The notes under the pieces are model-generated. The model was given only the letters and a program-made list of their open reading frames with translations, did no database searches and had not been told where the DNA came from. Shown piece by piece: positions 1 to 36,639 of a stretch of 64,000 nucleotides of DNA. Numbering within the stretch: position 1 is the stretch's first letter; each line of letters starts with the position of its first letter. A program made the translations under genes and the position numbers. The DNA comes from an uncultured Acidobacteriota bacterium (GTDB taxonomy: Bacteria > Acidobacteriota > Vicinamibacteria > Vicinamibacterales > UBA2999), in the NCBI GenBank assembly GCA_963751025.1, contig CAVVTC010000005.1, forward strand, positions 414,515-478,514. Direction: 5' to 3'.

Positions 1-363
1 CTTGGTGCGGGGCGTGATCGCCGCTTCGACCGCCCGCTCGTCGATGTTGAGCGTATCCGGGCGGATGTCCACGAACACCGGGCGCGCGCCGCGGAGCACG
101 AACGCGTTCGCCGTCGAGACGAACGTGAACGACGGCATGATGACTTCGTCGCCCGGCGCGAGATCAATCAGCAGCGCGGTCATCTCGAGCGCCGCCGTGC
201 ACGACTGCGTGAGCAGCACGCGCGGCGCGCCGGTGCGGCGCTCGAGCCAGGCCTGGCACTGCCTGGTGAAGCGTCCGTTGCCGGCCAGCTGGCCGGCGGC
301 GACGGCTTCCTGGATGTGCGTGAACTCCTTGCCGGTCAGGTAGGGTCGATTGAATGGAATCAT
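1..363 (-). CDS. wecE: DegT/DnrJ/EryC1-family sugar aminotransferase, WecE-like; N-terminal 121 codons only, gene continues beyond window start
   Basis: Hand translation from ATG at 363: MIPFNRPYLTGKEFTHIQEAVAAGQLAGNGRFTRQCQAWLERRTGAPRVLLTQSCTAALEMTALLIDLAPGDEVIMPSFTFVSTANAFVLRGARPVFVDIRPDTLNIDE. It is colinear with the E. coli WecE N-terminus (MIPFN..., PSYTFVSTANAFVLRGA) and in frame to position 1. Confidence 0.8.
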   Translation of the reverse strand, partial: MIPFNRPYLTGKEFTHIQEAVAAGQLAGNGRFTRQCQAWLERRTGAPRVLLTQSCTAALEMTALLIDLAPGDEVIMPSFTFVSTANAFVLRGARPVFVDIRPDTLNIDERAVEAAITPRTK

Positions 364-367
364 CGGC

Positions 368-1298
368 TCACAGCCGATCGACCGAGGCCGCCTCGGACCG
401 ATTGAAGTAGACGACTCCGCCGCTGAAGATCGCCAGCGCCATCAGCAATCCGACCACCAGGCCGGTTCTGGAGAAGCCGCCGATCCCGAGCAGTCCCCAC
501 TTGTACATCTCGACGACCGGGCTCATCGGGTTCAAATATGCGATGAAGTGCAACTGCGGGGGCAGGAGCGACACGCAGCTTCGACAGCGGAAAGATCACC
601 GGCGTCACGTAGAACCAGAGCTGCATGAAATAGCGGATCGAGAACTGCACGTCCTTGTGTCGGGTCTGCAGGACCGTCGTCCACAACCCGACGGAGATGG
701 ACAGGAACGCCGCCATCACCACCGCGAACAGCGCCACCAGGATCTGCGGCCCCAGGCGCAGATAGAACACGCCGTCCTTCACGTAGTAATACACGCAGGT
801 GAGAATCAGCAGCGTGAACAGCACGCCGAACTCGGTGAGCGCAGGCGCGACCGAGGAGATCGGCGCGATGAGCCGGGGGAAATAGACCTTCTTGATGAGC
901 GCGCGGTTCTGGTCCAGGCTTCGCGTCACGCGCTGCACGCCGCGGTCGAAGATGCGCCAGCACGACATCCCGGCGAGGAGGAACAGGAAGTACGGCACGC
1001 CGTCGGACGGCACCTGCAGCATGCTGCCGAAGATGAACGTGCTGATGAGGATCGGCGCCAGCGGCTGAACAAACATCCAGAACCGGCCGAGCGTCTTGTC
1101 CTCGTAGCGTTCGTTGATCCGGCGTGAGGCGAAGAACCACAGGATGCGCCGGTACCGCCAGAGCTCCTCGGCGCGGGCAATGAGCCCGACGCGCGCCGGC
1201 TCGATCACCCACTTCTGCGCCTTCCGTTCGAGGCCCGCGTCGGCGTCGCCGACCAGTGGCGCGCTCAGGCCCAACCAGCGTCTAAGCGCCAGCAGCAT
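368..1298 (-). pseudogene. wzm: ABC-2 type polysaccharide/O-antigen export permease (Wzm/TagG-like), one frame break near 575
   Basis: ORFs 360..1346 and 368..574 join by protein continuity. The first reads RYRRILWFFASRRINERYEDKTLGRFWMFVQPL...KKVYFPRLIAPISSV...FMQLWFYVTPVIFPLSKL; the second, one frame over, reads SLLPPQLHFIAYLNPMSPVVEMYKWGLLG. The likely start is MLLALRR at 1298, overlapping the upstream ATPase stop. Confidence 0.8.
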
Positions 1299-2541
1299 GG
1301 GCCTCCTGCCGGACGGTCCACTCGAGGCGCGGGGCGATGAATCCAACCCGATCCAGCCGCCCTGATGCGGGCGCGTCCGGCGTCTCCGTCCCGTAGACGA
1401 GGAACGACAGCGCGTTGTAGATGACCAGCGGGTATTCCTTGGCCTCGTCGTCCCGCTTGAACATACAGCCGACCGCGGCCACGTACGGCAACTCCGCCAG
1501 CAGGTCGCGCGGGATCTTCGCGAGCGCCTCGTAGGTGCCCGCCACCGGCAGCCGCCGCGCCTCGGTGTCGGTGGTCCTGAAAATGAGCTGCCCTTTCGTG
1601 CTGAGGTCGAGCGCGCACTTCACGGTGAGACTGGGCTTCGTGGTCCGAAAGCGCGTCTTGATATACACGTCCTCCGAGATCGGCGCGCCGCCGATGTCTT
1701 TCCCGCCGGCCGACACCAGTCGCACCGAGAGCACTTCCGCCAGGCGGTTCGATCGGCGGCCGCGCTCGGACTGGGCGATGTCGGCCTGACTCCAGATCGC
1801 GTTCTGATACTCGTCCACGACCTCTTCGGGATCGCCCATCCGCCGGATGGCGCCCTGATGGAGCCACATCACCCGGTTGCAGATCCGCAGAATCGCGTCC
1901 ATGTCGTGCGAGACGAAGAGCACGGTGAGGCCGCTCTGCCCGAGCTCGGCGACCTTCTGCAGACAGCGCTCCTGAAACGCCTGATCGCCGACCGCGAGAA
2001 TCTCGTCGGCGAGGAGGATCTGCGGGTTCATGTGGATGGCCACCGAGAATGCCAGCCGCAGATACATCCCGCTCGAGTAGTGCCGGAGCGGGCTGTCGAC
2101 GAACTGCTCGACTTCCGCGAACGCGAGGATGTCCTTGATCCGGCGCTGCGCCTCGGCGCGCGGGATGCCGAGGATCGCCGCGTTCATCAGGATGTTGTCG
2201 TGCGCGGCCAGATCGGGATCGAATCCGGCGCCGAGCTCCAGCAGCGACACGACCCGGCCGACGCCGACGACGCGGCCGGTGGTCGGTGTGATCACCCGCG
2301 CCAGGACCTTCAGCAGGGTCGTCTTGCCGGCCCCGTTCGGACCGATCACGCCCAGGATGGTGCCGGGCTCGACGCGGAACCCCACGTCGCGAAGCGCCCA
2401 GAAGTCGCGCGTCCGGGGAGACGCGTCGGAGTCGCCACGCGGGGACTTCAGGCGCCGCCACAGCGAGCGCGACGATTTCCCCTCGGATTCACGGCTCAGG
2501 ACGTAGCACTTCCCGAGCCCCTCGGCGACTAAACTATCCAT
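1282..2541 (-). CDS. wzt: Polysaccharide/O-antigen ABC exporter ATP-binding protein (Wzt/TagH-like) with about 170-aa C-terminal extension
   Basis: Intact 419-aa ORF with Walker A GPNGAGKTT, ABC signature YSSGMYLRLAF, Walker B ILLADEILAVGD and H-loop FVSHD. A beta-rich tail follows the NBD, as in Wzt carbohydrate-binding domains. Confidence 0.9.
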   Translation of the reverse strand: MDSLVAEGLGKCYVLSRESEGKSSRSLWRRLKSPRGDSDASPRTRDFWALRDVGFRVEPGTILGVIGPNGAGKTTLLKVLARVITPTTGRVVGVGRVVSLLELGAGFDPDLAAHDNILMNAAILGIPRAEAQRRIKDILAFAEVEQFVDSPLRHYSSGMYLRLAFSVAIHMNPQILLADEILAVGDQAFQERCLQKVAELGQSGLTVLFVSHDMDAILRICNRVMWLHQGAIRRMGDPEEVVDEYQNAIWSQADIAQSERGRRSNRLAEVLSVRLVSAGGKDIGGAPISEDVYIKTRFRTTKPSLTVKCALDLSTKGQLIFRTTDTEARRLPVAGTYEALAKIPRDLLAELPYVAAVGCMFKRDDEAKEYPLVIYNALSFLVYGTETPDAPASGRLDRVGFIAPRLEWTVRQEAHAAGA

Positions 2542-6772: not shown

Positions 6773-9751
6773 TCATGGTACCCGAGATTCCGGGACGAGC
6801 TGGCGGTTGCCGGGGGTCAGCAGGCGTTCAGCGAGCCCGACGAGACCCGCGATGACGAGCAGCGGCGGGCGCCACGCGCGAGCCGACCACGCCACACGAG
6901 ATCGCGCGCGACGTGCGGATCGCGCGCTGACGTCTTGCACGGCGTTGGCTATCAGGACTGACGGCGATGCAGAGAAGCGCGGGCTGGACTGTCGCGTCGG
7001 AGCCGCGGTCGGATCGACGGCCGAGCAATCGAGCGCCGCGCGGACCTTCACGTTGAGCTCCTCGACTGTCGATGCCTGCTCGACCCGGCTGCCTTTCGTC
7101 GTCCACAGGAACTCCAGCGGCATGGCATCGGCAGCGGCCTGCGGCATGTCGACGCGATACACCGCGACTGCCGGCTTCCCGAGCGACGCGGCCATCGTCA
7201 AGGCGAGACCGTCGATGCCCACCGTCACGGCTGCATATCGAACCGACTCGGACAGAAGCACCGCGTCGAGCTCGCCCGATCGCTCGTAGGCTCGTGGACA
7301 CACGACGACGTTGTCCGCGCCGCTGAACTCCAGCGTCCGCCAGCGAGGCGTGCGAACCGACGGGCGTATCAACACCGCAAGGTCACGCAGCTGCGGATCC
7401 CGACTGGCCCGCAGCGCCGCGACCCAGCGGCGCACCAGGGCCACTTCGCGGCCGGGCTCGCTCAGGACACCCACGGACCCACAGAAGAAGGCAAACGGCC
7501 TCCCCGCCGGCAGACCCAGCATCGCGCGAAACTCCGCGGCATCGACGAGTGGTGGATCGTGCAGTGTGCGATCGAGGAATGCCGGGCCGGTCGCGATGAC
7601 CCGATCGTCGGCGAGAGCGAGATCGCGAATCACACTGCGGCGCTCCTCCTCACTCCGCACGCACACGAGCGAGGGGCCTGCCTGCAGCGACGCAGGATGT
7701 AGTTGACCGTCTGGTGCAGCGCCGATCGTCACGACGGGGATGCCGAACGACGCTGAGGCCCGAATCAGATCCGCCTGCGATGCCCCGCTCTCGTGTGCGG
7801 TGAGGATGTCGCTGTCGGGCAGGATCAAGACCGTGTCCGGCTTGAGCTGCCGGAGGATCTCACGCGCCTCGCTCGACGGGGGAATCGCCCGATCGAGTCT
7901 CGCGATGAGCCGACGCAATCGCGGCGCAGCGATGATCCCTTGCCGGGCCAGGCGGGCCAGCGCCCGGGCGCCCGGCGGCACGATTGACAGCGCGAGCTTC
8001 ACCAGCCATGCCGGAACCTGACCGGGCTTCCGGCGATCGAGCATCGTGGCGTACGCCGACATGGCGTGCAGCCCGCGCGAGATGTTGCCCCATGTGTCCT
8101 GCGGCGGCGGCACCAGTCCCGCCGTCACAACACCCGGCAGGTCGCATCTGATGCGTGCATACGACTCCTCGAGCTGCCCGGTCCGGGCCGTGAAGACGAT
8201 TCTCAGCTGATGGCCCCGCTCGGCGAGCGTTCGCAGAAGAGGTTGGTGGAGGAACAACGACGAGGCCGAGGGCACTCCGATCGCGACGCGGGCGAAGTCG
8301 GGATGCTCGCGACGCGCGGGCAGCGCCGCCGCCCGCCGCGCGGCGAGCGTCGCCACCGGACCGAGCGACACGCGAAGCCATCGCATCCAGCGTGAGACCG
8401 AGCGAGACGCGGCGCGGCGATCGACCACTTCGTGAAAGAGACGGGCCCAGAGCATGAACCCGGGCTTGAGATCGGGGCCGTGAGGGCGCACGAGCATTCT
8501 GATCGCGGCACGACCAGCCACATCAAGCCCATCGCGCACAACGGTTTCGACCGAGAGTCGCAGCTGCTCGAGATCACGGGCCACGAGAGGCCATCCGGTC
8601 CTCGGGTTCGCGTCCGCGCAGAATCGCGCCAGCGCCTGATTGCCCTCGGTTGGCCAGAGCAGCGCGACGAGCGGTTTCGCGCGCGCGGCGGCTTCGAGCA
8701 CCGCGGTCATGTCGGTGGCGACGATCACGTCCGCGTGCTCCAGCGTCTCCGCGATCTCCGCGACATAGCGCTGCGGGTCGATCTGCGATCGTGGAACCAG
8801 CATCCGACCGGCCTGCGTGTCCTCGCGCTGCTCGACTCCCGATGGCGGCGGCGCGTAGACCACGATGCTGGCGTCGCGCACGCGAGCGTCGGCACTCGAA
8901 CCCAGGGCCTCGACCCACTGGCGAAGCCGATCGGGGTGCCGATCGGCCGTGGCATGGTCGGTGGCCAGCACGACAATCGCACGCGAGGGATCGAGCGCGT
9001 GACGGGCGCAGAACTCCTCACGGCTCGTGCTGATGACTCCAGCCGAATCCAGGGGCAGACAGCCCCCGACGACGGCGGTGCGGTGTACAGGAATTCCCAG
9101 CACGTCAACGGCGTATCGGCGCTGTTCGCGGTTCCAGACGGCGACACAGTCCGGGAGCACATGTGGTAGCGCTCCGGACGTCAGGTCATCCCATCGCGTC
9201 GGAAGTCCAATGGTGGGTATCTCCAGCGCATTCGCCGCATGCAGGTAGTCGGGCGCGATTGAGCCAATACCGAACATCGGCACGACCACGAGCAGATCCG
9301 GCTGAAACGCTTTCAGAAACTCGACGATCGACGGAGGCGGCGGCAGCGTGTGCTCGATCGCGCGCAGCGTGCGCACAGCGAGAGGGCGAACGATCCCGGT
9401 CCTGATCATCCAGTGCTGGGCAAGGCGGGCCGCCAAGGGCGGCGCCGTCGCGAGGGCGCGGCGATACGCGGCCACATCTGCCGACGGCGGATCCAGCCAG
9501 CGCACGCAGTCGAGCGCACCGCGGATCGTGGTATTGAGGTCGGACCAGCGATCGAGCGCGGGAGCGGTGCCGAAGGTGAGACGCCGGAACTTTCCCGAGA
9601 ACGCGGCGACGTTGGCACCTGGCGGCGGCTCGTCGTGAACGGCGACGTGCACACGCCCGCGACGGGCAGTCAACTCGGTCAACGCGCTCGCACACGCCTC
9701 CAGTGCGCCGAGGTGGGGGGCGACGACCAGCGTCCTCTTGACCAGTTGCAT
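6773..9751 (-). CDS. 992-aa protein made of two tandem copies of an uncharacterised GT-B-like module (putative glycosyltransferase)
   Basis: Intact ORF. The N-half (…LKAFQPDLLVVVPMFGIGSIAPDYLHAANALEIPTIGLPTRWDDLTSGALPHVLPDCVAVWNREQ) and C-half (…LRQLKPDTVLILPDSDILTAHESGASQADLIRASASFGIPVVTIGAAPDG...) are colinear. Both also align with the single-module paralog at 17919..19401. The gene is last in the CDP-sugar operon. Confidence 0.6.
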   Translation of the reverse strand: MQLVKRTLVVAPHLGALEACASALTELTARRGRVHVAVHDEPPPGANVAAFSGKFRRLTFGTAPALDRWSDLNTTIRGALDCVRWLDPPSADVAAYRRALATAPPLAARLAQHWMIRTGIVRPLAVRTLRAIEHTLPPPPSIVEFLKAFQPDLLVVVPMFGIGSIAPDYLHAANALEIPTIGLPTRWDDLTSGALPHVLPDCVAVWNREQRRYAVDVLGIPVHRTAVVGGCLPLDSAGVISTSREEFCARHALDPSRAIVVLATDHATADRHPDRLRQWVEALGSSADARVRDASIVVYAPPPSGVEQREDTQAGRMLVPRSQIDPQRYVAEIAETLEHADVIVATDMTAVLEAAARAKPLVALLWPTEGNQALARFCADANPRTGWPLVARDLEQLRLSVETVVRDGLDVAGRAAIRMLVRPHGPDLKPGFMLWARLFHEVVDRRAASRSVSRWMRWLRVSLGPVATLAARRAAALPARREHPDFARVAIGVPSASSLFLHQPLLRTLAERGHQLRIVFTARTGQLEESYARIRCDLPGVVTAGLVPPPQDTWGNISRGLHAMSAYATMLDRRKPGQVPAWLVKLALSIVPPGARALARLARQGIIAAPRLRRLIARLDRAIPPSSEAREILRQLKPDTVLILPDSDILTAHESGASQADLIRASASFGIPVVTIGAAPDGQLHPASLQAGPSLVCVRSEEERRSVIRDLALADDRVIATGPAFLDRTLHDPPLVDAAEFRAMLGLPAGRPFAFFCGSVGVLSEPGREVALVRRWVAALRASRDPQLRDLAVLIRPSVRTPRWRTLEFSGADNVVVCPRAYERSGELDAVLLSESVRYAAVTVGIDGLALTMAASLGKPAVAVYRVDMPQAAADAMPLEFLWTTKGSRVEQASTVEELNVKVRAALDCSAVDPTAAPTRQSSPRFSASPSVLIANAVQDVSARSARRARSRVAWSARAWRPPLLVIAGLVGLAERLLTPGNRQLVPESRVP

Positions 9752-9757
9752 CGAGGC

Positions 9758-10273
9758 TCAGGAACTCCTGTCGTCCGTCCATCGGACGGCCAGCGCGGCG
9801 AAGCGCGCGGCGCGATCGCGGGCACGGATGGCAAGATGACTGGTGAGACGGGCCCCGGCGGGCATCCGTGGGGGTACACCACTCACGAGCATCCCGGTCT
9901 CAGGCAGGTCCGGAGCCAGCACGATCGGCAGCGTCGCTTCGGCGCGCTCGACCCGGCGCCGCACGAATGGACGCACCATCGCCACGCCCATGGCGGAGAT
10001 CAGCGGCCGCGAGGGCCCGATGCCGGCCATCGTCGCCAGGGTCGCTCGCACGGATGCCGGCAACTCCTCGTCGGCACCGAGTGAGGGCATTTCCACCACG
10101 CGGTACGGCGTCAAGCCGTACGTGGCAATGGCTTCCGCGCGTTGAGCGCCGTTCGCGACGAGAATCCAATCGGGCGGGGATGCGGCGCCGGCGATCACCC
10201 GCATGCCAGCCGGGGCCGCGTCGGTCACGCGTTCGAGCGCCCTGGGGGTCGCGCCCACGACGAGCACCGTCAT
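9758..10273 (-). CDS. Hypothetical protein (171 aa), operon member
   Basis: Intact ORF. Its ATG forms an ATGA overlap with the upstream gene stop (10270-10273), and its stop lies 6 nt before the next ATG. No recognisable motif. Confidence 0.5.
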   Translation of the reverse strand: MTVLVVGATPRALERVTDAAPAGMRVIAGAASPPDWILVANGAQRAEAIATYGLTPYRVVEMPSLGADEELPASVRATLATMAGIGPSRPLISAMGVAMVRPFVRRRVERAEATLPIVLAPDLPETGMLVSGVPPRMPAGARLTSHLAIRARDRAARFAALAVRWTDDRSS

Positions 10274-11457
10274 GCGGCCACCAACTCGACGCCGGACGCG
10301 TCGAGAAATTCACACGACACACCGAGATCCCGGCACGTAGTCGCGATCTCGCCGAGGTAGTTCGGGTTCATGACGACGACGACCACGGACTGATGGGCGG
10401 ACGCGCGCAGCGACACGGGCGCCTCGATCCGGCGCCCCGAGATGGGCACGTAGCCACCCTGCTTGTTGACGTTCACGTCCACGGTGTAGTCGATCAGCGC
10501 CGAATCCGGATCGACCATCAACGAGAACATGATGCCCTTCGTGGCCATGCCCCACAGCGCGATCACGCGACCCTGTTGTCGGAGCGCGCGAAGGCGATCA
10601 CGAATGGCCTGCACGCGCGCCTGCTCACCCGCCGAGTACTCCTGCAGCCGTGCGGCAAGTGTCTGCCCGCTGTTCGCCGGTCTGGTCCGCGATGCGGCGG
10701 ACTCGGCCTCCGTCCATCGATACTGCCGGCCGAACACGACACCGGTCGCCGTGGCCGTGAAACCGGCGCTGCCGAGGACTGTGGCCAGTGTCGTGTCCGT
10801 GAAGTAGTTGCAGTGCTCGTAGCAGAAGTCCCAGAACGCGTGCTCCTCGAGCATCCACCCGAGATCGGGAACTTCGATGAAGAGCGGCACACCCGTGCGG
10901 TCGCCGAGCGCCTCTCTGATCTCGCGCAGGAACGCAGCCGGGCTGGGCATGTGTTCCAGGACGTGGCGAGACACGAACAGCGACGGACTGTCATCGAGTT
11001 GATCGGGCGAGAACACTCCCTTGATCAGCCGGAGCCGCCCACCCGCCAGGATCTCATCGTGCGGGAGCGCCGGATCCACGCCGACGGCGCGACATTCCGG
11101 CCAGACCTGGCACAGCGTCTTCAGAAACGCGCCGTTGCCGCACCCGACGTCCACCACATACCCGCGCTCGAGTGAATGGCGGCGTCCGAGCATGGTCGCC
11201 ACGTCGGTGTAGTGCCGATCCATGACCGCCGATGGCACGGCGTTGTCGTAGCCGGCGTCGTACACGAGCCGTGATGGATCGAACGCGGCGTTCCATGAAA
11301 ACCCGCAGGCCGAGCAGGTCGCAAGGGAGAACTGGCCGCGGACAGACCGGCGCGCGTCGTCGGCTGTGCGGTAGACGTAGTTCTGCATCGACGGCAGGAG
11401 CGGCCGGGTCACGCTGGTCACCGGCTGTCCCGCAGTACAGATCGGGCACTCGCTCAC
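10270..11457 (-). CDS. NDP-hexose C-methyltransferase-like protein (zinc-ribbon + class I SAM MT + C-methyltransferase C-terminal domain)
   Basis: GTG start at 11457 (GTGA overlap with rfbG-like stop). It has N-terminal CPIC...CSACG cysteines, the SAM motif VVDVGCGNGAF, and EHCNYFT...ALWGMATKG...VDVNVNKQG as in TylC3/NovU-type enzymes. The upstream part of ORF 10270..11967 is discounted because it overlaps the dehydratase. Confidence 0.75.
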   Translation of the reverse strand: MSECPICTAGQPVTSVTRPLLPSMQNYVYRTADDARRSVRGQFSLATCSACGFSWNAAFDPSRLVYDAGYDNAVPSAVMDRHYTDVATMLGRRHSLERGYVVDVGCGNGAFLKTLCQVWPECRAVGVDPALPHDEILAGGRLRLIKGVFSPDQLDDSPSLFVSRHVLEHMPSPAAFLREIREALGDRTGVPLFIEVPDLGWMLEEHAFWDFCYEHCNYFTDTTLATVLGSAGFTATATGVVFGRQYRWTEAESAASRTRPANSGQTLAARLQEYSAGEQARVQAIRDRLRALRQQGRVIALWGMATKGIMFSLMVDPDSALIDYTVDVNVNKQGGYVPISGRRIEAPVSLRASAHQSVVVVVMNPNYLGEIATTCRDLGVSCEFLDASGVELVAA

Positions 11458-12449
11458 GAGCGCTCCCAGTCTCCGAACCAGCGGCGGTACCAGTCGAGGG
11501 TCTCTCGCAGCCCCTGGTCCATCGTGTAGGCGGGCGTCCAGCCGAGCGTCTGCGTCGCCTTGTCGAACGACAGCCACTGCTCGCGAATCTCCGCCTGCGC
11601 GGTATTGCGAATGTCGGGAGAGAGATCGGTCCGGCCGGTCAGCCGCTGCAGATCCGCGATCACCTCGAGGACGGTCCGGCGCGCTGAACCGCCGAAGTTC
11701 ACCGCTCCGCCGCGAAGCCGGCCCGTGTACGCCGCCTCGGCCAGACACAGGTACGCGGATGCGGCGTCCTTGACGTACAGGTAGTCGCGCACGAACGTCC
11801 CGTCGCTCCGGACGATCGGCCGCTCGCCGCGCAGCAGCGATCGAATCGTGCCCGGAACAATCCTGGTCCAGTTGAGATCCCCGCCGCCGTAGATGTTGCC
11901 GCACCGCGCGACCAGCGCCGGCAGGCCGTAGGTGTCGTGATACGTCTGTGTCAGCAGGTCGGCGCACGCCTTCGACACGTCATACGGATGCTGCGCCCTG
12001 AGCGGCGTCTGCTCCGTATAGGGCAACTCGGACGAGGAGCCATAGGCCTTGTCGCTCGACGCGACGACCACGGACTTGATCATCGACGCATGGACGCGGC
12101 AGGCGTCGAGCAGGTGATACGTGCCTCGGATGTTGGCGTCGAAGGTCGCGACCGGCGAGCGCGCCGCGACGCCGACCAGCGTCTGCGCGCCGAGGTGAAT
12201 CACCACGTCCACTTCCCAGACACCCACCGCGCGCTCGACCGCGGCATAGTCCTCGAGCGCTCCGAAGACCTGCTTGACCTTGTGGATGTCGCCGCTCCGT
12301 ACCAGCTCGGACTGCGGATCGATGTCCACCAGGAGCGCGACGACCGTCGCGCCCCGCTCGAGCAGCGTCTTTACGACCCACGAGCCGACGATGCCGGTGG
12401 CGCCGGTGACCAGGACGCGCCGGCCGCGCCAGACGAAGGCGTCCGTCAT
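11454..12449 (-). CDS. rfbG: CDP-glucose 4,6-dehydratase-like SDR
   Basis: Intact 331-aa ORF with FVWRGRRVLVTGATGIVGSW (RfbG-like N-terminus), ASSDKAYG and the catalytic YDVSK. It shares an operon with rfbF. Confidence 0.7.
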   Translation of the reverse strand: MTDAFVWRGRRVLVTGATGIVGSWVVKTLLERGATVVALLVDIDPQSELVRSGDIHKVKQVFGALEDYAAVERAVGVWEVDVVIHLGAQTLVGVAARSPVATFDANIRGTYHLLDACRVHASMIKSVVVASSDKAYGSSSELPYTEQTPLRAQHPYDVSKACADLLTQTYHDTYGLPALVARCGNIYGGGDLNWTRIVPGTIRSLLRGERPIVRSDGTFVRDYLYVKDAASAYLCLAEAAYTGRLRGGAVNFGGSARRTVLEVIADLQRLTGRTDLSPDIRNTAQAEIREQWLSFDKATQTLGWTPAYTMDQGLRETLDWYRRWFGDWERS

Positions 12450-13214
12450 ACGGTCCGCCTCAGATACGCCTGCGGCCAGTGCGTCACGTTCCGATCGAGC
12501 TCGCTTTCATTGAACGGCCACGGCGGCTGCTCGAGCGTGAACTCCGTGTGCGACCGCAGGAAATCGTGCACGGCGGAGATCGGGTTGTCGTCGCGCCATG
12601 AGGGCTGGCCGCGCGGCGCATCGGCGACCTCCTGCATCACGCCGTCGGTGGCCACGAGGTACGAGCCGACCGAGACGAGCGGTGCGTAGGCCTCGAGCTC
12701 GGCGCGCACGTGGTCGCGCGAATGATTCGAATCGAGCAGCACGAGCACGGTCTCGCCAGGAGCGATCGCGGACCGGACCCGGCCCACGATGCGCTGGATC
12801 GATCGAGCTGCCCTCGATGAGATCGATGAGCCCACGCAGCGGGTGGCCGTCGAGCGCCGCCTTGTTGTGCGGCCGGATCTCGATGTCCACGCCGATGACC
12901 CGCCCGCGGTCGAGCGCCTTGCACAAGGCCGCGTAGTACACCAGCGACCCGCCGTGCGCCACGCCAGTCTCGACGATCACGTCGGGTGCCACGCGGTGAA
13001 TCACCTCCTGCAGCCGGATCATATCGTCGGGCAGCTGAATGATCGGCCGCCCGAACCAGCTGAAGGTGTAGGTGTACTTCTGGTTCCACCCGACCTTGAG
13101 CCACAGCCGCGACAACAGCTCGAACCCTTCCTTCGAGTACAGCGGCACGCGCGATTCGCCGCTCTCGGTGCGGCTCACGATCACGCCGGCGTCGGTGTCT
13201 ACCGTGAAGGTCAT
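12446..13214 (-). pseudogene. CmcI/cephalosporin-hydroxylase-family methyltransferase (rhamnosyl O-methyltransferase-like), one frame break near 12820
   Basis: MTFTVDTD...FSWFGRPIIQLPDDMIRLQEVIHRVAPDVIVETGVAHGGSLVYYA...IGVDIEIRPHN...LIEGSSIDP lies in ORF 12507..14372. ORF 12446..12835 continues with VLVLLDSNHSRDHVRAELEAYAPLVSVGSYLVATDG. Confidence 0.75.
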
Positions 13215-14135
13215 GCCTGCACCATTCCGCCGTGCGCCTTCCACCAGGCGACAGTCTCGCAAATTCCGTCCTCGAGGCGAGACCGCGGCGTCCACCCGAC
13301 GTCGCGGGACAGCCGCGTCACCTCGGCGATGACGAGAGGCGCCGGATCGTGCAGGTTCGTCTCGGACTGCTCGAGATGCAGGCCCTCGCCGGTTTCCGCA
13401 CCGACGATTTCTCCAAGGCGCGCCAGCGCGATGCCCTCGCCAGACCCGATGTTGCACCGCGCCCTGAACGTCGGACGCCAGCAGCGCGCTGAACGCCGCG
13501 CCGGCGTCGGAGACGAGCAGGTAGTCGCGCACCTGCGCCGGATACCGCAGTCGAAACGGCGTGCGCGACGCGCTGGCGCGAATCATCGACGGCACCAGCC
13601 GCTCGGGCGACTCGCCCGGACCGTAGGTCCAGAACAGGCGACCCTCGGCGAAGCTGAAGCCCGCCTGCACCGACCATCGCTCGAGCACCTCGTACTGCGC
13701 ATGCTTGCAGGCCGCGTAGAGCGTGGCCGGCCGGCACGGCGTGGTGCTCTCTGAGCACACCCCCTCCGACCAGTCGTACTCCGCCACCGTCCCGGCCACA
13801 ACCACACGCTGTCCGCCGTGCGCCAGGAAGCTGTCGACGAGTTGCAGCGAGGACTGCAGCCACTTCGGATTGTCGAGCGACGTGAGATACACGCCCGGCG
13901 ATGCGATCCAAGCGAAGTGCAGCAGGTGTGTCGGGCGCACGCGCTGCATCAGGGCATCGACGGCGCCGCGATCGTGCACATCGACCGCGTGCGTCACGAC
14001 GCCTGTAGGGCCCGCCTTGAGGCGGCCCCCACGCTGCGCGGCGTGCACGTCAGCGCCTCGCGCGGCCAGCGGCGCCAGCGACCAGCGGCCGACGAATCCG
14101 CTCGCACCGGTGACCAGCACGCGCGTCATCGTCAT
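13211..14135 (-). pseudogene. NAD-dependent sugar epimerase/reductase (extended SDR), one frame break near 13447
   Basis: MTMTRVLVTGASGFVGR...YAACKHAQ (YxxxK) is in one frame. After ...SDVQGAV the continuation NIGSGEGIALARLGEIVGAETG...GWTPRSRLEDGICETVAWWKAHGGMVQA-stop is one frame over (hand translation). ATGA overlaps at both ends. Confidence 0.75.
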
Positions 14136-14662
14136 CGGGTGAGAAGCCCCCAGCGCCGATCCTGTTCGGAGAGCATCGACGGCGGCAGCGGCCACCTGAT
14201 CGCCAGCGTCGGATCGTCCCAGCGGATGCCGTCGCCCATCTGCGGCGCGTAGTAGTCGCTGAGATGATAGTGGACGGTGCTCTCCTCGATCAGCGTCTGA
14301 TACCCATGCGCCACGCCTTCGGGAAGGAACAGCGCGCAGCGGTTCTCCGGCGTCAGCTCGCAGCCGTCCCACATCCCGAACGTCGGCGAATCCGGGCGCA
14401 CGTCAGCGATCACGTCGTAGATCGCGCCTCGAATACAGGTGACGAGCTTGGCCTCCGAGTGCGGGGCACGCTGAAAGTGCAGGCCGCGCAGCGTGCCGCG
14501 CTGGTGGTTGTGGGAGATCGCGCTGCGCACGAACGAGCCGTGCCATCCACGCTCGGCCAGCGCACGCAGCTGATACACCTCGGTAAACGACCCGCGATCG
14601 TCGGCGACGGTCGTCGGTTCGATGCGAAACGCCCCATGAATGCGGGTGGAATGCAGGGTCAC
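14132..14662 (-). CDS. NDP-4-dehydro-6-deoxyhexose 3,5-epimerase (RmlC-like cupin)
   Basis: GTG start at 14662 (GTGA overlap). The sequence reads DDRGSFTEVY...HNHQRGTLRGLHFQ...EAKLVTCIRGAIYDVIADVRPDSPTFGMW...FLPEGVAHGYQTL. Confidence 0.8.
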   Translation of the reverse strand: MTLHSTRIHGAFRIEPTTVADDRGSFTEVYQLRALAERGWHGSFVRSAISHNHQRGTLRGLHFQRAPHSEAKLVTCIRGAIYDVIADVRPDSPTFGMWDGCELTPENRCALFLPEGVAHGYQTLIEESTVHYHLSDYYAPQMGDGIRWDDPTLAIRWPLPPSMLSEQDRRWGLLTR

Positions 14663-15898
14663 TGGAGTTCGATCCGCGGCACGGCGAGGATGAAGCGGCC
14701 GCCACGACGATGGTAGGCCTCTTCCTGGCGCACGACTTCGTCCTTGAGATTCCAGACGAGGATGAGCAGATAGTCCGGCTGACGCTCGGTGATCACCTGC
14801 GGAGCGACCACCGGGATTCCGCACCCGGGCATCCGTCGGCCCTGTTTGTGCGGGCTGCGATCGGCGACAAACGACACGGTGTTGGCCGTAATGCCGCAGT
14901 AGTTCAACAGAATGCTTCCCTTCGCCGCCGCTCCATAGGCGCCAATCGTCGCGCCCGATGCGCGCAGCCGATCGAGCGTGGTGTTGAGGTCGTCCCGCAC
15001 GCGTTCAACAGCCGTTCGGAAGTCACGATAGTACCCCTCGCGCGTCAGCCCGAGCGCTTCCTCCTCGCGCAGCAGCTGCTCGGTCGTGTCGCCGTGGCGC
15101 TCGCCCGTGCCGATGAACAAACGAAGAGACCCGCCGTGAATCGGGACGCGCTCGACCCGCTCGAGCGCGAGACCGTGACGGCGGACGAGCGACGCGACGG
15201 CGTGCACGGAGAAGTAACAGAGATGCTCGTGATAGATCGTGTCGAACTCGGTGCGCTCGACCATGTCGCGCACGTACGGCACTTCAATCACCGCGACGCC
15301 ACCCGGCGCCAGCATCGTCGCGATCCCGCTCATGACGCCGTTCAGATCAGGGACGTGCGCCATGACGTTCAGACCGAGCAGCACGTCAGCTCGCCGCCCC
15401 TCGGCAACGAGGCGCGCCGCGAGATCACGGCCGAAGAACTCGCTGATGGTCGGAATGTGCCGCTCGTCCCTCGCCACGGCGGCGATGTTGGCCGCCGGCT
15501 CGATGCCGAGTACCGGCACGCCAGCGCGCTGGAAGTATTGCAGCAGGTAGCCGTCGTTGCTCGCCACCTCGACGACGAGGCTCGCCGGCCCCAGGCCTCG
15601 TTCGGCCACGAGTGACGAGGCCAGCGCCTCGGCGTGGCGCAGCATCGAGGCGGAGTACGAGGAGAAATAGAGGTACTCGGAGAACATCTGCTCCGGCGCC
15701 ACGATGTGCCGCAGCTGCACGAGCGAGCAGGCCGGACAGAACCCGACGTCGAGCGGGAAGCGAGGTTCATCGGTGGGGGCTTCGGCCGGCGGATAGGCGT
15801 TCGGCAGCGGCAGCCACCCGAGCGAGAGGATCTCGCGGATGCCATCGGCGTCGCACGACAGGCAGCGCGTGCGCGCGGCAGGCAGTGGCTAGTCCCAT
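14659..15898 (-). pseudogene. Second NDP-hexose C-methyltransferase-like protein; 5' end lacks a usable in-frame start
   Basis: ORF 14659..15720 carries the MT core (VVEVASNDGYLLQYF, YHEHLCYFS, AYGAAAKGS, ADRSPHKQG). The zinc-ribbon (RCLSCDADGIREILSLGWLPLPNAY...FCPACSL) continues in frame upstream, right up to the rfbF TAG, with no ATG/GTG/TTG. An ATG at 15898 lies one frame off. Confidence 0.7.
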
Positions 15899-16662
15899 CG
15901 CTTCCACGGTGCGCGGCCACGCTGCCACAGCTCTTCGAGCAGATCCCGTTCCCGGAGCGTGTCCATGCACTGCCAGAAGCCGCCATGCGCGTGGACGGCC
16001 AGCTGCCGCTCGGTGGCCAGCCGCTCGAGCACGTCCTTTTCGAGGCTGTCGGTGTGGTCGTCCATGTGGTCGAAGACGGCCGGCTCGAAGATCATGAACC
16101 CGCCGTTGATCCAGCCTTCGCCGATCTGCGGCTTCTCGACGAAGTCGGTGACGATCCCGCTCTCGAACGACAGACCGCCGTAGCGCGACGGCGGCCGCAC
16201 CGCGGTGACGGTGGCGATCTTGCCGCAGCGGCGATGGGTCGCCATCACCGCGGCGAGATCGACGTCGGAGACGCCGTCGCCGTAGGTGAGCATGAACGGC
16301 TCCCCATTCAGCCAGCGGCGAAGCCGGTGCAGCCGGCCGCCGGTGCCGGTCGCCACACCGGTCTCGACGAGATGGACCTTCCAGTCGTCGCGGACGTCGC
16401 CGTCCTCGAGGTGCGTCGTGCCGGACGCGAGGTCCACGGTCAGCGACGCGCTCAGCAGCGTGTATTGCAGGAAGAACTCTTTGATGACGTAACCCTTGTA
16501 GCCCAGCGCCAGCACGAACTCCGTGTGATCGAAGCTGGCGAAGTGCTTCATGATGTGCCACAGGATCGGACGCTCGCCGATCTGCACCATCGGCTTGGGG
16601 ACGACCTCGGTCAGCTCGGCCAGCCGGCTGCCGCGGCCGCCGGCGAGAATCACGACTTTCAT
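15889..16662 (-). CDS. rfbF: Glucose-1-phosphate cytidylyltransferase
   Basis: MKVVILAGGRGSRLAELTEVVPKPMVQIGERPILWHIMKHF...GGRL...LTYGDGVSDVDL...GWINGGFMIFEP...GFWQCMDTLRE. Start at 16662 (ATGA overlap with the upstream stop). Confidence 0.9.
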   Translation of the reverse strand: MKVVILAGGRGSRLAELTEVVPKPMVQIGERPILWHIMKHFASFDHTEFVLALGYKGYVIKEFFLQYTLLSASLTVDLASGTTHLEDGDVRDDWKVHLVETGVATGTGGRLHRLRRWLNGEPFMLTYGDGVSDVDLAAVMATHRRCGKIATVTAVRPPSRYGGLSFESGIVTDFVEKPQIGEGWINGGFMIFEPAVFDHMDDHTDSLEKDVLERLATERQLAVHAHGGFWQCMDTLRERDLLEELWQRGRAPWKRWD

Positions 16663-17922
16663 GCGCCTCCCGCGGCGGCGGGCGTCCCGTGCCGCCAGAC
16701 GTGATAGGTGCTCAACGTGTCGAGACTGGGCATCGCCAGCAGCACGTTGGTTCCCCTCGGACGCGGCGTGCGCGCGCCCCACGCGAGCGCGTCGAAGATC
16801 GTGCTGAAGCGCGGCAGGTCGTCCTCGGGCTCCTCCTGCTCGATGTCGTCGGCGTTGCGCGCGGCTGTCTCAGGCGGCATCACCGAGAGCGCATCGAGAT
16901 AGATCTGACGCGACCGCACCCACCGCTGCACCTCGTCCGACCTCGCGATTCAGCCCGTCGATGAGCGAATCGTAATCCTCCGAGAGGTCCACTCCGGCCT
17001 TGGAGGCGCGAAAATAGTCGAGCAGGCAGGCCACGTAGTAGCGAGGCCGATTGAGGGCGCACGCACGCAAACGGCTCGGGCAGCACTTCTCTGAGGCGCA
17101 TCGAGATCGTTCAACACGAGCGGGTGAGTGAAGCACGCGTCGGTCGGCATGCGATCCACGAGGTCGCTCCACGACATGCCGAGGTCGAGCCGGAACCGGT
17201 CGGCCAGCGGGCCGCGACGCCGGAATGCGGAACCGTTGCCCACGCCGCAGCTGACAAACAGCGAGTCGTCGAGGATCACCATCGCGATCGGTGTGGGCCA
17301 GCATCAGGTAGCCGGAGGTGTAATCGGGGCACACCGGCGGACAGAAGCGGCCGAGGGGGCCGGAGCGCACGCGATCGATCACCGACCGGCGGCAGACGCC
17401 GGTCATCAGCTTCGGCAGCAGCTTGCCGCCGAAGTCCGGATGACCTTGCGCGAAGTACTCGAGCACCTCGGCGCTGTCGAACTCTCGCCGCTCACCCGAG
17501 CAGCGGCGCCGCTTGAACATCGTGCCAAGCGGATCGCGCCCGTACTGATCGGGAAACCAGCTCACGACCGGCGTGTCGCTGCGCTCGATCTCCGCGTAGA
17601 CCAGGCTGAGCGCGTCAGGGCGGAAGACGGATCGGTCGGTCAGGATCCCGACGTACTCTCCACGGGCGTCGGCAATCGCGCGCTCCCAGTTGTCCGGCAT
17701 CGACAGCTTGCCGCTGGTCCGGACGTAGCGCGACACGCGGATCTCGGTGCCTCGGCCGCAACAGCTGATGCCGCAGGCGCATACGGCCTCGTCGCCGTTG
17801 TCGCAGACGATGACCTCGAGATCCTCGAAGGTCTGCTCGAGCACGCTTCGCAGGGCGCTGCGAAGCTGGTCGACGCGGTTCTTGGTGGGAATCGCAATCG
17901 TGAAGAAGGGCGACGCGCTCAT
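16659..17922 (-). pseudogene. Family 2 glycosyltransferase, at least 3 frame breaks
   Basis: MSASPFFTIAIPTKNRVDQLRSALRSVLEQTFEDLEVIVCDNGDE...SMPDNWERAIADARGEYVGILTDRSV. Later parts continue in ORFs 16950..17282 and 16659..16931 (…VQRWVRSRQIYLDAL...). ATGA overlaps at both ends. Confidence 0.7.
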
Positions 17923-19401
17923 CGGCCAATGCCCTCGGAGGCAAGCGTCAGCCCGGGCACGCCCCGCCGCCGGGCGGCGTCGGAGATCGGTGCGCGATCC
18001 GCGCGCGGACGCGCGCGCGTCTCGATCACATCGGCCACGACGAGGCTGGCCGGCGCCTCGGGCCCGCACGGGCGAACGAACCAGCGCGTGAACTCGCGAC
18101 GGCCGTCGGCCTTCTCGTCGGCGCCGTCCACGATGCGCCGCACGTGCGCGGCCACGTCGGCAACAGTCGCGACACACTTCGAGGAAATCTCCCTTGAGCA
18201 GATGGCGGAAGTGGCCGGTCCGACCCTGAGCCGGCCAGTACTTCTCGCTCACGATGGTCAGGCAGGGGCGATTGGCGACGACCGCTTCGAGAAACGCCGT
18301 CGTGTTGAGGCCGAAGACGCACAGCGCCCCGGCCAGCTGATCGTAGTACTCCTGCCACGACTCCGGCGAGTCGGCCTGGTCGCCCTCCCTGGGATGCACG
18401 ACGACACTCGGGTACGAGAACGACTCGAACGGACGGGGATTGGTCGGATGCGGCCGCACGACGAGCGTCGGCGCTCGCCCGGAGAACTCCTGCGCCAGGG
18501 CGTCGGCCATGGCCGTCACCATGGAGTCTCGTTGTCCCAGATCGTTCGCGAGCTGCACAGAAACACCATGTACGGCCGCGTCGGGACACCCCATCTCGGC
18601 GCACAACTGCTGCCGGGTCCTGCGCGGCTGCATCGCAAAGAAGGGATCGAGGTGCGGCGCGCCGGTGATGCGGATCGTCTCCGCGCGGGATGTCGTGAAT
18701 CTCCGCGGCTTCCTGCGCGATCGGCTCGTTCCACACGATGGAGACAGATCCGGCACGACGTGCACCGTGCCCTTGCTCGTCAGGTTGTCCCAGCTGTTGA
18801 CATATCCGATCGTCGGAATGCCCAGCGTGCGCGCGGCATGCAGGTAGTCGGCTTCAACCGGATCCTTCGGCCAGATCGTCGGCGACACGAGCATCACGTC
18901 CGGGTCGATCTCGCTCAGCACCGACGAGAAGCGTCGGACTCGCGGGGCTGGCGGCCTCGATCCACCGCCAGATGCCCAAGCGCCGCTCGCGTGCCGAGGG
19001 CGCGCCGCCACAGCGGCCGGTGAATCTGCTTCGCGCGAGATCGTCAGGCAGTCCTTCTCGAGGCCGGCGACCACGCGCTCGGGCGAGGGATGGTCCTTGC
19101 GCAAGTAGATCCCGCGGTTGACCACCTGACGGCCGACGCGAAGACGACGGGGCCACGGCTCGCCCGGCTCTGGACGGTAGCCGCTCGTCACACCCGCGAT
19201 CTCGGACTGCGCGACCTGCAGGCCACGGCCGAGCAGTCGCTTCTTCGTCGAGTCCTGCGCGATCTTCTCACGCACGCGCGCATCGTCGAGCCGCGTGCCG
19301 TGCAGGAACACGACCTCGTGCCCGCGCCGGCACAGCTCCCGCATGACCGTGTCGAGATTGCGGAAGAAGTTGACGTGCTGGCCGATCATCAGGACTTTCA
19401 T
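17919..19401 (-). pseudogene. Single-module member of the uncharacterised GT-B-like family, at least 5 frame breaks
   Basis: [35 protein letters not shown]...SEIDPDVMLVSPTIWPKDPVEADYLHAARTLGIPTIGYVNSWDNLTSKGTVHVVPDL is colinear with both halves of 6773..9751. Compensating shifts occur near 19050/18960 and 18740/18660 (VWNEPIAQEAAEIHDIP is in ORF 18026..18736). The C-terminus is in ORF 17919..18155. Confidence 0.6.
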
Positions 19402-36606: not shown

Positions 36607-36639
36607 CTAATCCTTCTACCCTAGCCTACTATGTGAGAC

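Follow-up and report, generated by a model that had tools for sequence, protein, structure and literature searches.

Two 3-C-methyl-6-deoxyhexoses carried on CDP, cereose and cillose, are listed among the experimentally characterised pathways (PMC7725333), and they come from a four-gene operon of B. cereus (Li et al. 2017, J Biol Chem 292:7636). The O-antigen pathways for CDP-3,6-dideoxyhexoses (ddh/rfb) use the same carrier and proceed through RfbF, RfbG, RfbH/E1 and RfbI/E3. The dTDP-L-noviose and dTDP-L-mycarose pathways (NovT/W/U/S; TylC3/TylK/TylC2; MtmC; TcaB9; KijD1) represent the antibiotic deoxysugars, whose common logic is a 4,6-dehydratase, an RmlC-like epimerase, a zinc-ribbon C-methyltransferase acting on the 4-keto sugar, a 4-ketoreductase and later O-methylation. 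An older CDP precedent is CDP-vinelose of Azotobacter vinelandii, reportedly described by Okuda, Suzuki and Suzuki in 1967-68; we know of no gene cluster assigned to vinelose. A further cluster, SMb21416-SMb21418 on pSymB of S. meliloti 1021, is annotated as ddhA, ddhB and an NDP-hexose 3-C-methyltransferase, and no functional study of it was found.

The window, the whole 64 kb stretch of DNA analysed here, comes from a Vicinamibacterales-type soil acidobacterium. It contains an operon whose products probably form a seven-enzyme pathway that starts from glucose-1-phosphate and ends in a CDP-activated 6-deoxy-L-hexose with a C-methyl branch and further methylation. The operon would also supply the transferases to place this sugar in a surface glycan.

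Layout of the operon and its frame breaks

An earlier sequence-only reading of the window had described ten consecutive minus-strand genes running from 19401 to 9758. The reading frames bear this out, and Pfam and NCBIfam, including Pfam searches of repaired proteins, agree with the gene identities it had named. The genes are as follows.

17919..19401, minus strand: GT-B-fold (predicted) glycosyltransferase-like protein, ~490 aa; Pfam-less family; 8 apparent assembly indels
16659..17922, minus strand: GT2-family glycosyltransferase, ~418 aa; PF00535 at 66.6 bits after repair; 7 apparent assembly indels
15889..16662, minus strand: glucose-1-phosphate cytidylyltransferase RfbF/DdhA, 257 aa, intact; TIGR02623 equivalog
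14659..15898, minus strand: canonical NDP-4-keto-6-deoxyhexose C-methyltransferase (C-MT2), 412 aa; PF08421, PF13489 and PF08484; 1 apparent assembly indel, at codons 5-6
14132..14662, minus strand: RmlC-type NDP-4-keto-6-deoxyhexose 3,5- (or 5-) epimerase, 176 aa, intact; TIGR01221 and PF00908
13211..14135, minus strand: extended SDR, probable 4-ketoreductase, ~306 aa; PF01370 at 119.6 bits; 3 apparent assembly indels
12446..13214, minus strand: CmcI/rhamnosyl-O-methyltransferase-family methyltransferase, 255 aa; PF04989 at 247 bits after repair; 1 apparent assembly indel, at 12791
11454..12449, minus strand: short-form CDP-glucose 4,6-dehydratase, 331 aa, intact; TIGR02622 as best NCBIfam model, motifs and context
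10270..11457, minus strand: divergent C-methyltransferase-like protein (C-MT1 clade), 395 aa, intact; PF13489 and weak PF08484
9758..10273, minus strand: 171-aa protein with no recognised fold; no Pfam or NCBIfam match
6773..9751, minus strand: 992-aa protein with two GT-B-like modules, both halves matching the GT-B-like family

The first ten genes are packed head to tail. Eight junctions are 4-nt overlaps, just where the earlier reading had placed them, with ATGA at 17919, 16659, 14132, 13211, 12446 and 10270 and GTGA at 14659 and 11454; the ninth, between rfbF and the C-MT2 gene, is indeed a 10-nt overlap (ATG at 15898, stop at 15889-15891). An intact orthologous operon (L001) has identical junction geometry at every position, the 10-nt overlap included, and its nucleotide identity to the window is only about 75%. 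Because the overlaps are kept across this distance, the coupling is more than chance, and the ten-gene array is a real, tightly packed operon. The earlier reading erred in ending the unit at 9758: the ATG of the 992-aa gene lies 6 nt past the stop of the 171-aa gene, the gene is conserved in this position in both L001 and a second related contig (L084), and it is part of the operon.

In the window as sequenced, five of the ten reading frames are interrupted, and homologue-guided, frameshift-aware alignment locates about 20 frame breaks in them. Taken at face value, so many breaks could mean that the operon is decaying, with real mutations having turned the cluster into a pseudogene array. However, nearly all of the break sites match, within a few bases, single extra bases that are missing from L084, which is 96.9% identical to the window, and from L001, where the GT2 orthologue, for example, is intact at 417 aa. 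L084 has breaks of its own in rfbF and the genes for C-MT2, RmlC, CmcI and the dehydratase; none overlaps with the window's set, and its reading frames for the GT-B-like protein (492 aa) and the SDR (307 aa) are unbroken. Indels of the same kind riddle the neighbouring pdxA, holB and NAD synthase genes, the shifted segments between breaks still encode conserved protein sequence, and after repair the translations are free of stop codons. Decay is thus hardly credible. Since L084 and the intact L001 lack them, the ~20 single-base indels are, judging from these alignments, long-read assembly errors rather than marks of pseudogenes.

Entry through CDP-glucose and the tailoring enzymes

RfbF scores 326.4 bits against the NCBIfam model TIGR02623, above the equivalog cut-off of 300.25, and would form CDP-D-glucose. 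The dehydratase, expected to yield CDP-4-keto-6-deoxy-D-glucose, has TIGR02622 as its best NCBIfam model at 202 bits, under the cut-off of 278, and its overall score is about equal against dTDP-glucose dehydratases. Its motifs S-D-K and GGGD, however, align with those of 1wvg/1rkx and not with the T-D-E of RmlB, and in 66 of 80 loci, from many phyla, the gene for its homologue is immediately preceded by rfbF. RfbH/E1 and E3 were both sought and neither occurs in the 64 kb window, where the sole DegT-family gene is WecE-like (205 bits, versus 43 for RfbH). CDP-4-keto-6-deoxyglucose is well supported as the intermediate by the RfbF cut-off, the CDP-type motifs, the rfbF context and the lack of RfbH/E1, and the entry through CDP-glucose proposed earlier, outside the 3,6-dideoxyhexose branch, holds. 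The locus shares with the CDP-3,6-dideoxyhexose pathways the carrier, the first two steps and the two motifs, but C-methylation and epimerisation take the place of RfbH/E1 and E3.

Three enzymes of the next steps closely resemble characterised ones. C-MT2, in which the YHEH motif and two CxxC pairs are readable, has the full TylC3/TcaB9 architecture and matches the MtmC structure best (4rv9, E = 5e-94, ~40% identity), followed by KijD1 and TcaB9. It would methylate the carbon beside the 4-keto group, most likely C-3 as in MtmC, TcaB9, KijD1 and the cereose enzyme. Similarity cannot discriminate between C-3 and C-5 regiochemistry for C-MT2: SgcA3, which we take to methylate C-5, has 39% identity with C-MT2 and 50% with MtmC, an enzyme acting on C-3. 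The RmlC-type enzyme (TIGR01221 at 169 bits, over a cut-off of 155.75; PF00908 at 197 bits; E = 2e-43 to RmlC structures) would invert C-5, and also C-3 if it acts before methylation, leading to the L-series. The SDR, with readable GxxGxxG and YxxxK motifs after repair, shares 34% identity (E = 1.5e-53) with the reductase encoded fourth in a B. cereus rfbF-rfbG-C-MT operon and probably reduces the 4-keto group.

That RmlC passes the equivalog model for dTDP-4-dehydrorhamnose epimerase, and that those structural homologues of C-MT2 that have been characterised act on dTDP-sugars, raises the question of mixed nucleotides: RfbF and the dehydratase would make a plain CDP-6-deoxyhexose, and the substrate of C-MT2, RmlC and the SDR would be a dTDP-sugar whose synthesis is encoded at another genomic site. 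The 64 kb window, though, contains neither rmlA nor rmlB, nor any second nucleotidyltransferase or dehydratase. A contiguous rfbF-dehydratase-C-MT-RmlC-SDR cassette occurs in 14 loci of several phyla, in which rfbF is the only nucleotidyltransferase detected among query homologues, and the B. cereus precedent indicates that the C-methyltransferase family accepts CDP-sugars. We regard such a division as quite improbable and prefer a single CDP-linked route.

The remaining two enzymes are placed by family. The CmcI-type methyltransferase may O-methylate a hydroxyl. C-MT1 had been described, like C-MT2, as having TylC3/NovU-type architecture, which is correct for C-MT2 only: C-MT1 has a weak PF08484 match (35 bits), reaches E = 6e-10 to MtmC and is ~22% identical to canonical C-methyltransferases, and by sequence it is a member of a distant separate clade and not a second TylC3/NovU copy. 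The motif FCYEHCNYF is found in 90 of 104 members of this clade and two CxxC pairs in 97 of the 104; C-MT1 itself retains two features of sugar C-methyltransferases, the zinc ribbon and the catalytic Glu-His pair. It may add a further methyl group, plausibly by a second methylation on carbon while the sugar still has its 4-keto group, at C-5 as with NovU. No functional name was present among the members found of the C-MT1, CmcI, 171-aa and GT-B-like families.

Glycosyl transfer, export and the timing of methylation

The product of the first gene has no Pfam match even at E<=1. Its AlphaFold model (pLDDT 80, pTM 0.81) finds as best Foldseek matches the GT1 deoxysugar glycosyltransferases CalG1, UrdGT2 and SpnG together with UDP-GlcNAc 2-epimerases, each at a probability of 1.0, and a GT-B fold is predicted. 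The two modules of the 992-aa protein belong to the same Pfam-less family. For the 171-aa protein the structural model is poor and gave no fold match; its family has 43 representatives among 1.84 billion proteins. One homologue, in P0288, is fused N-terminally to a GT-B-like domain, suggesting a functional link between the 171-aa protein and the GT-B-like protein encoded after it. The GT2 enzyme and the three GT-B-fold domain copies, one from the first gene and two from the 992-aa protein, would transfer the sugar with the help of the 171-aa protein.

The seven-enzyme gene set recurs in rearranged form in six other loci (L039, L086, L088, L089, L090 and the P0055 contig), labelled Planctomycetota (as L039 is) or Acidobacteriota or lying on unlabelled metagenome contigs, and the module often adjoins wzm/wzt. 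The order RmlC-SDR-CmcI-C-MT1 is fixed in L086, L088, L089, L090 and the P0055 contig; in L088 and L090, wzm and wzt, the latter with a Wzt_C domain, lie directly upstream of this block and Bac_transf and Wzy_C genes are close by. A Wzt/TagH-type ATPase is encoded at 1282-2541 of the window, whose export genes do not adjoin the operon. Export is probably through a Wzm/Wzt-type ABC transporter.

This context bears on the timing of the late methylations. C-MT1, CmcI or both could act after glycosyl transfer, for example by forming a non-reducing terminal chain-length cap read by Wzt. The position of the block behind wzt with its cap-binding domain in L088 and L090 fits this proposal, as do the TylF- and Methyltransf_21-type methyltransferases adjoining the transporter in relatives, the PF04989 family name, which covers an enzyme methylating rhamnose already on a glycolipid, and a faint Wzt_C match (E = 0.017) in the tail of the window's Wzt. 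In the window, however, CmcI and C-MT1 lie within the nucleotide-sugar block, between the SDR and the dehydratase, and the Glu-His pair and zinc ribbon kept by C-MT1 serve enolate chemistry on NDP-4-keto sugars, which is impossible once the keto group has been reduced and the sugar transferred. Methylation of the polymer is therefore a possibility that we consider unlikely, though not negligible, and methylation at the nucleotide-sugar stage is preferred.

Relation to known branched-sugar pathways

The earlier reading could name no established CDP-linked route to a C-methyl-branched deoxysugar. The enzyme set is as it described, and the structurally characterised homologues of C-MT2 all act on dTDP-sugars, as would be expected if dTDP-type C-methyltransferase chemistry had here first moved onto CDP-sugars in an unprecedented class of pathway. 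Against this, CDP-cereose and CDP-cillose had been characterised before, the rfbF-rfbG-C-MT trio was annotated on pSymB of S. meliloti in 2013 or earlier, and CDP-vinelose is reportedly older still. In addition, a B. cereus operon of the same gene set (rfbF-rfbG-C-MT-reductase, plasmid pRML01), paralogous to the characterised chromosomal one of ATCC 14579, encodes homologues of four window proteins, with identities of 48% for RfbF, 27% for the dehydratase, 40% for C-MT2 and 34% for the SDR. On the earlier reading's own terms, this counts against it in part. An unprecedented class is very improbable and was rejected.

With the cereose/cillose operon the locus shares the CDP carrier and the first four steps (cytidylyltransferase, 4,6-dehydratase, SAM C-methyltransferase and 4-reductase), and at its core the route matches the established one to CDP-cereose. 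The genes are ordered differently, the dehydratase is a short form with only 27% identity to the Bacillus rfbG product, and the window adds the RmlC-type epimerase, and therefore an L-series product is expected. The target also differs, being probably an ABC-transporter-exported polysaccharide here and a spore glycoprotein in B. cereus. The S. meliloti cluster has an rfbF 51-59% identical (in two aligned pieces) and a C-MT2 homologue at 47%, directly followed by a C-MT1-clade gene (31%), with another C-MT1-like copy on the opposite strand; its dehydratase, however, is canonical and 23% identical to the window's, and no RmlC or CmcI gene lies within 9 kb of the cluster. The antibiotic deoxysugar pathways share enzyme families and logic with the window but use dTDP, lead mostly to 2,6-dideoxy or amino sugars and rely on GT1 transfer to secondary metabolites rather than surface glycans.

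Vinelose is likewise a CDP-linked 3-C-methyl, O-methyl 6-deoxy-L-hexose, and CDP-vinelose is the product expected of RfbF, a dehydratase, a 3-C-methyltransferase, a 5-epimerase, a 4-reductase and an O-methyltransferase; the window has one methyltransferase beyond this need. By this analogy the full enzyme set would meet the needs of a vinelose-like sugar (6-deoxy-3-C-methyl-2-O-methyl-L-talose) with one extra methylation. The operon is most likely an elaborated variant of the known B. cereus pathway and not new chemistry. What is new relative to that pathway is the RmlC-type epimerase, the CmcI-type methyltransferase and the second, divergent C-methyltransferase clade, accompanied by a family that lacks a Pfam model and is predicted to adopt a GT-B fold.

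Gene layout and frame breaks

The minus-strand operon of the window most likely encodes a new and more elaborate variant of a known CDP-linked C-methyl sugar pathway. Its chain of ten genes is real; it opens with ATG 19401 and closes with the stop at 9758, in the order GT-B-like gene, GT2, rfbF, canonical C-methyltransferase (C-MT2), RmlC-type epimerase, SDR, CmcI-like methyltransferase, dehydratase, divergent C-methyltransferase (C-MT1) and a gene for a 171-aa protein. Eight junctions are 4-nt overlaps at the positions given by the sequence-only reading, GTGA at 14659 and 11454 and ATGA at 17919, 16659, 14132, 13211, 12446 and 10270. The 10-nt overlap of its ninth junction is also there, between rfbF and C-MT2 (ATG 15898, TAG 15889-15891). 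That reading set the end of the operon at 9758, but a gene for a 992-aa protein starts 6 nt past the stop of the 171-aa gene and extends the operon from ATG 9751 to 6773. Scans for promoters and terminators gave matches at chance level only. Further genes follow on the same strand:

Downstream of the 992-aa gene, minus strand: DCC1-like thiol-disulfide oxidoreductase gene
1282-2541, minus strand: Wzt/TagH-type ABC ATPase, 4 kb beyond the operon
360-1346, minus strand: multi-pass membrane protein, presumed Wzm, ABC-2 permease-like by eye, frameshifted near its end
1-441, minus strand: N-terminus of a WecE-like 4-aminotransferase, continuing past the window edge

The ten open genes are missing from the mechanical ORF list of the window (G+C ~68%), and a GC3 frame plot shows frame changes within several of the operon genes. 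Relatives fetched by dehydratase homology include three loci from Acidobacteriota MAGs, L001 (Vicinamibacterales), L002 and L003, which are syntenic with window positions 19400-10400, L001 further, to 7154. In L001 all genes are open and each junction has the geometry found in the window, the 10-nt overlap included. L001, the nearest relative with intact genes, also carries an extra 272-aa gene (15699-16517) between its double GT-B-like and DCC1-like genes, absent from both the window and L084, an ENA contig to which a protein 99% identical to the window C-MT1 (P0001) had pointed. Frameshift-aware alignment to the L001 proteins places ~20 frame breaks in the window, eight in the GT-B-like gene, seven in GT2, three in the SDR gene and one each in C-MT2 and CmcI, and none in the rfbF, RmlC, dehydratase, C-MT1, 171-aa and 992-aa genes.

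Such breaks could mean that the operon is decaying into pseudogenes, a reading rejected after comparison with L084, which is 96.9% identical to the window across 15 kb. Nearly all break sites in the window match, within a few bases, single extra bases that are missing in L084. There the GT-B-like gene (492 aa) and the SDR gene (307 aa) are unbroken, and frame breaks that differ from those of the window disrupt rfbF, C-MT2, RmlC, CmcI and the dehydratase gene. The frame breaks are therefore errors of a noisy long-read assembly. Indels of the same type affect the neighbouring pdxA/holB region as well as the NAD synthase gene of L084. Between window positions 2553 and 21448 a single-base indel relative to L084 is found roughly every 150-300 bases (97 gaps in 15 kb and 93 in the next 3.3 kb), and pdxA (ending near 19425), a holB-like gene and others are disrupted as well. 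Short ORFs resembling PadR-type regulators were seen by eye to recur in the right half, at 36637-36963 (plus strand) and 48852-49178 (minus strand), among many fragmented ORFs. Uncorrected ORF calls anywhere in the window are unreliable. Public protein collections (NCBI/ENA) already include, under P0155, an 843-aa ORF from 16870-19401 (minus strand). This entry corresponds to no real protein: the assembly indels of this contig joined the N-terminus of the GT-B-like protein, out-of-frame sequence and the N-terminus of GT2 into a chimera. The practical warning is that public databases already contain a protein made by assembly errors.

Entry to the pathway and the modifying enzymes

Profiles, motifs and gene context back two entry steps, in which CDP-glucose would be made and then converted to CDP-4-keto-6-deoxyglucose. 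RfbF passes the TIGR02623 equivalog with 326.4 bits against a cut-off of 300.25, the runner-up family scoring 91 bits. The dehydratase stays under the TIGR02622 cut-off (202.1 bits versus 278.45), yet this is still its top family, dTDP-glucose dehydratase coming second with 173 bits, and its overall scores against dTDP- and CDP-glucose dehydratase structures are roughly equal. In the alignments its segment 'assdkayg' stands opposite 'tsdkcyd' in 1wvg and 1rkx, both CDP-glucose dehydratases, and opposite 'stdevyg' in 6bi4 and 2hun, so that the protein has S-D-K as in 1wvg and 1rkx where RmlB enzymes have T-D-E, and 'gniygggd' aligns with 'gnvigggd', giving the GGGD loop of the same two structures. 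We take S-D-K and GGGD to be diagnostic of CDP-glucose 4,6-dehydratases. In 66 of 80 loci with dehydratase homologues, the gene directly upstream on the same strand is rfbF, and three further loci have it in the same operon. Elsewhere in the window there are no homologues of the nucleotidyltransferase, dehydratase, SDR or methyltransferases of the operon.

A route to 3,6-dideoxyhexoses from the same intermediate would call for an RfbH/E1-type PMP-dependent 3-dehydrase. Pfam and NCBIfam scans covering the operon and its flanks returned no candidate, and the sole DegT-family gene found in the window, at 1-441, is WecE-like (205 bits, against 43 bits for RfbH). The RfbF profile, the dehydratase motifs, the pairing with rfbF and the lack of an RfbH-like gene in the scanned region give good support to what was proposed from the sequence, that the pathway branches at CDP-4-keto-6-deoxyglucose and does not lead to a 3,6-dideoxyhexose.

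C-MT2 has PF08421 (Zn ribbon), PF13489 (class I SAM) and PF08484, all past the Pfam cut-offs; it matches the 3-C-methyltransferases MtmC (4rv9, E = 5e-94), KijD1 and TcaB9 in that order, and the YHEH catalytic motif is found as 'iyhehl' in the alignment with 4rv9. The RmlC-type protein passes the TIGR01221 equivalog (169 bits, cut-off 155.75), which makes it a predicted member of the 3,5-epimerase family. After repair, the SDR falls into the extended class (PF01370), and the CmcI-like protein, repaired likewise, matches PF04989 above the gathering score (247 bits, positions 1-205 of 206) and is a predicted methyltransferase of the CmcI / rhamnosyl O-methyltransferase family. By strong homology, C-methylation, 5-(3,5-)epimerisation and 4-reduction would follow the entry steps, and O-methylation by CmcI would be expected at the level of the family. 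No CDP-bound structure was found for the RmlC, C-MT2 or SDR families. The site of C-methylation is another matter. SgcA3 of the C-1027 cluster, which we take to be a C-5 methyltransferase, shares 39% identity with C-MT2 and 50% with MtmC, a C-3 enzyme, and because SgcA3 and MtmC are so similar, C-3 and C-5 specificity cannot be read from similarity.

Known pathways and the divergent C-methyltransferase clade

CDP-cereose and CDP-cillose are 3-C-methyl-6-deoxyhexoses that PMC7725333 places among the experimentally characterised pathways, and they are reported to come from a four-gene operon of Bacillus cereus (Li et al. 2017). A different operon with this gene set, on a B. cereus plasmid, consists of rfbF, rfbG, a methyltransferase gene and then an SDR gene, with 48, 27, 40 and 34% identity to the window RfbF, dehydratase, C-MT2 and SDR. 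The route to these sugars takes CDP-glucose synthase, 4,6-dehydratase, C-methyltransferase and 4-reductase activities, and homologues of all four are united in one operon in the window. The sequence-only reading was right about the operon and its pathway logic, but its statement that no CDP-linked C-methyl route could be named does not hold. The two known sugars belong to the D-series and are not modified further, whereas the window operon also has RmlC, CmcI and C-MT1, none of which is present in the B. cereus plasmid operon.

CDP-vinelose, said to have been isolated from Azotobacter vinelandii in 1967-68, contains 6-deoxy-3-C-methyl-2-O-methyl-L-talose. It would need six activities that are present in the window operon, all but C-MT1. 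On pSymB of Sinorhizobium meliloti, ddhA, ddhB and an 'NDP-hexose 3-C-methyltransferase' are annotated side by side (SMb21416-21418). Analysed by tblastn, this locus has two genes of the C-MT1 clade flanking the trio (locus positions 10231-11430 and 15564-16721), one directly downstream and the other on the opposite strand 4 kb off, and no RmlC or CmcI homologue within 9 kb. A literature search returned no functional study of SMb21416-21420 and nothing that characterises the window cassette.

Both C-methyltransferases had been assigned the TylC3/NovU-type architecture, which stands for C-MT2 with its three domains. C-MT1 shares part of it but belongs to a distant clade with ~22% identity to canonical enzymes and is no second TylC3/NovU copy. 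C-MT1 has PF13489 and a weak PF08484 (35 bits, cut-off 23.5), PF08421 was undetected in the Pfam scan, and the match to MtmC (4rv9) reaches only E = 6e-10. Identity within the clade is 31-48%. Two CxxC pairs are present in 97 of 104 members and YEH in nearly all, and the near-invariant FCYEHCNYF aligns with the canonical YHEH motif and keeps its Glu-His pair. The retention of this pair and of the CxxC pairs points to enolate chemistry beside the keto group and hence to a further C-methylation by C-MT1, an extra step that would be expected at the level of the family. CmcI, C-MT1 or both could instead act after transfer of the sugar, as a cap-forming step.

Glycosyltransferase-like proteins, recurrence and export

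The first gene product and each half of the 992-aa protein are members of one family for which Pfam has no model, and all of its database relatives are named 'hypothetical protein'. Pfam assigned the GT-B-like protein to no sequence family. An AlphaFold model of the first gene product, built with 30 homologues, has a GT-B fold of two Rossmann-like domains (pLDDT 80, pTM 0.81) and 234 PDB matches at E<=0.001, the best being the GT1 deoxysugar glycosyltransferases CalG1, UrdGT2, SpnG and LanGT2 and UDP-GlcNAc 2-epimerases (NeuC). The protein is accordingly described here as a predicted GT-B-fold glycosyltransferase-like protein. The 171-aa protein belongs to no Pfam or NCBIfam family and has 43 representatives in 1.84 billion proteins; its AlphaFold model is poor (pLDDT 64), with zero Foldseek matches below E = 0.1. 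In P0288, a database relative of 631 aa, a homologue of it forms the N-terminal part of a fusion whose GT-B-like domain shares 32% identity with the 992-aa protein where aligned, which argues that the two proteins may work as a functional pair. P0284 (594 aa) is listed as a second relative with this fusion, the alignment covering P0288 only.

The enzyme set recurs in varied gene orders and in loci with varied phylum labels. Among the 80 loci, rfbF, dehydratase, C-MT2, RmlC and SDR occur together in 14, including Verrucomicrobiota-, Chlamydiota- and Acidobacteriota-labelled ones, with CmcI added in eight and C-MT1 in four. In neighbourhoods of the C-MT1 clade, RmlC-SDR-CmcI-C-MT1 forms a fixed block (L086, L088, L089, L090 and the contig of protein P0055), adjoined by rfbF, dehydratase, canonical C-methyltransferase and GT2 genes. 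In L088 and L090, wzm and wzt (with a Wzt_C domain) directly precede the block, and a Bac_transf initiating transferase and a ligase-type Wzy_C protein are nearby. L086 also has a GT-B-like protein (62%), a GT2 (49%) and an ABC-2 permease. Beside ABC transporter genes in L086 (10187-11944) and on the P0055 contig (12689-14469) there are extra TylF-type and Methyltransf_21-type methyltransferases, and because of these some versions of the glycan may be even more heavily methylated. In the window, the C-terminal tail of the Wzt/TagH-type ATPase gives only a faint Wzt_C match, and the presumed Wzm has no match to ABC2_membrane of Pfam. With the aminotransferase, these two genes form a second surface-glycan unit at positions 1-2541 of the minus strand, which suggests the synthesis of a 4-amino-4,6-dideoxyhexose as well. 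Given the wzm and wzt neighbours in L088 and L090, the permease in L086 and the ATPase of the window, the most likely destination of the operon product is an ABC-transporter-exported, O-antigen-like surface polysaccharide.

A fuller proposal, which we hold to be rather unlikely, is that C-MT1 represents a new clade of regiospecific C-methyltransferases, that the module would yield a CDP-6-deoxyhexose with C-3 and C-5 methyls and an O-methyl, and that enzymes of the new GT-B family would add this sugar, as a building unit or as a cap, to surface polysaccharides exported by ABC transporters in soil Acidobacteriota, Planctomycetota and the further carriers found. We know of no described 6-deoxyhexose with C-3 and C-5 methyl branches plus an O-methyl.

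How phages, hosts and antibodies recognise a bacterial surface is shaped by branched, methylated deoxysugars, which also serve as useful building blocks in glycoengineering. The module joins known chemistry to three functionally unannotated families, the C-MT1 clade, the GT-B family without a Pfam model and the 171-aa partner. Part of it (rfbF, dehydratase, C-MT2 and C-MT1 homologues) is present on pSymB of the genetically tractable S. meliloti 1021, and the questions raised are therefore directly testable. As the module shows, CDP-linked C-methyl sugar chemistry of the kind known from B. cereus spores occurs widely among uncultured soil bacteria, in a more elaborate version.
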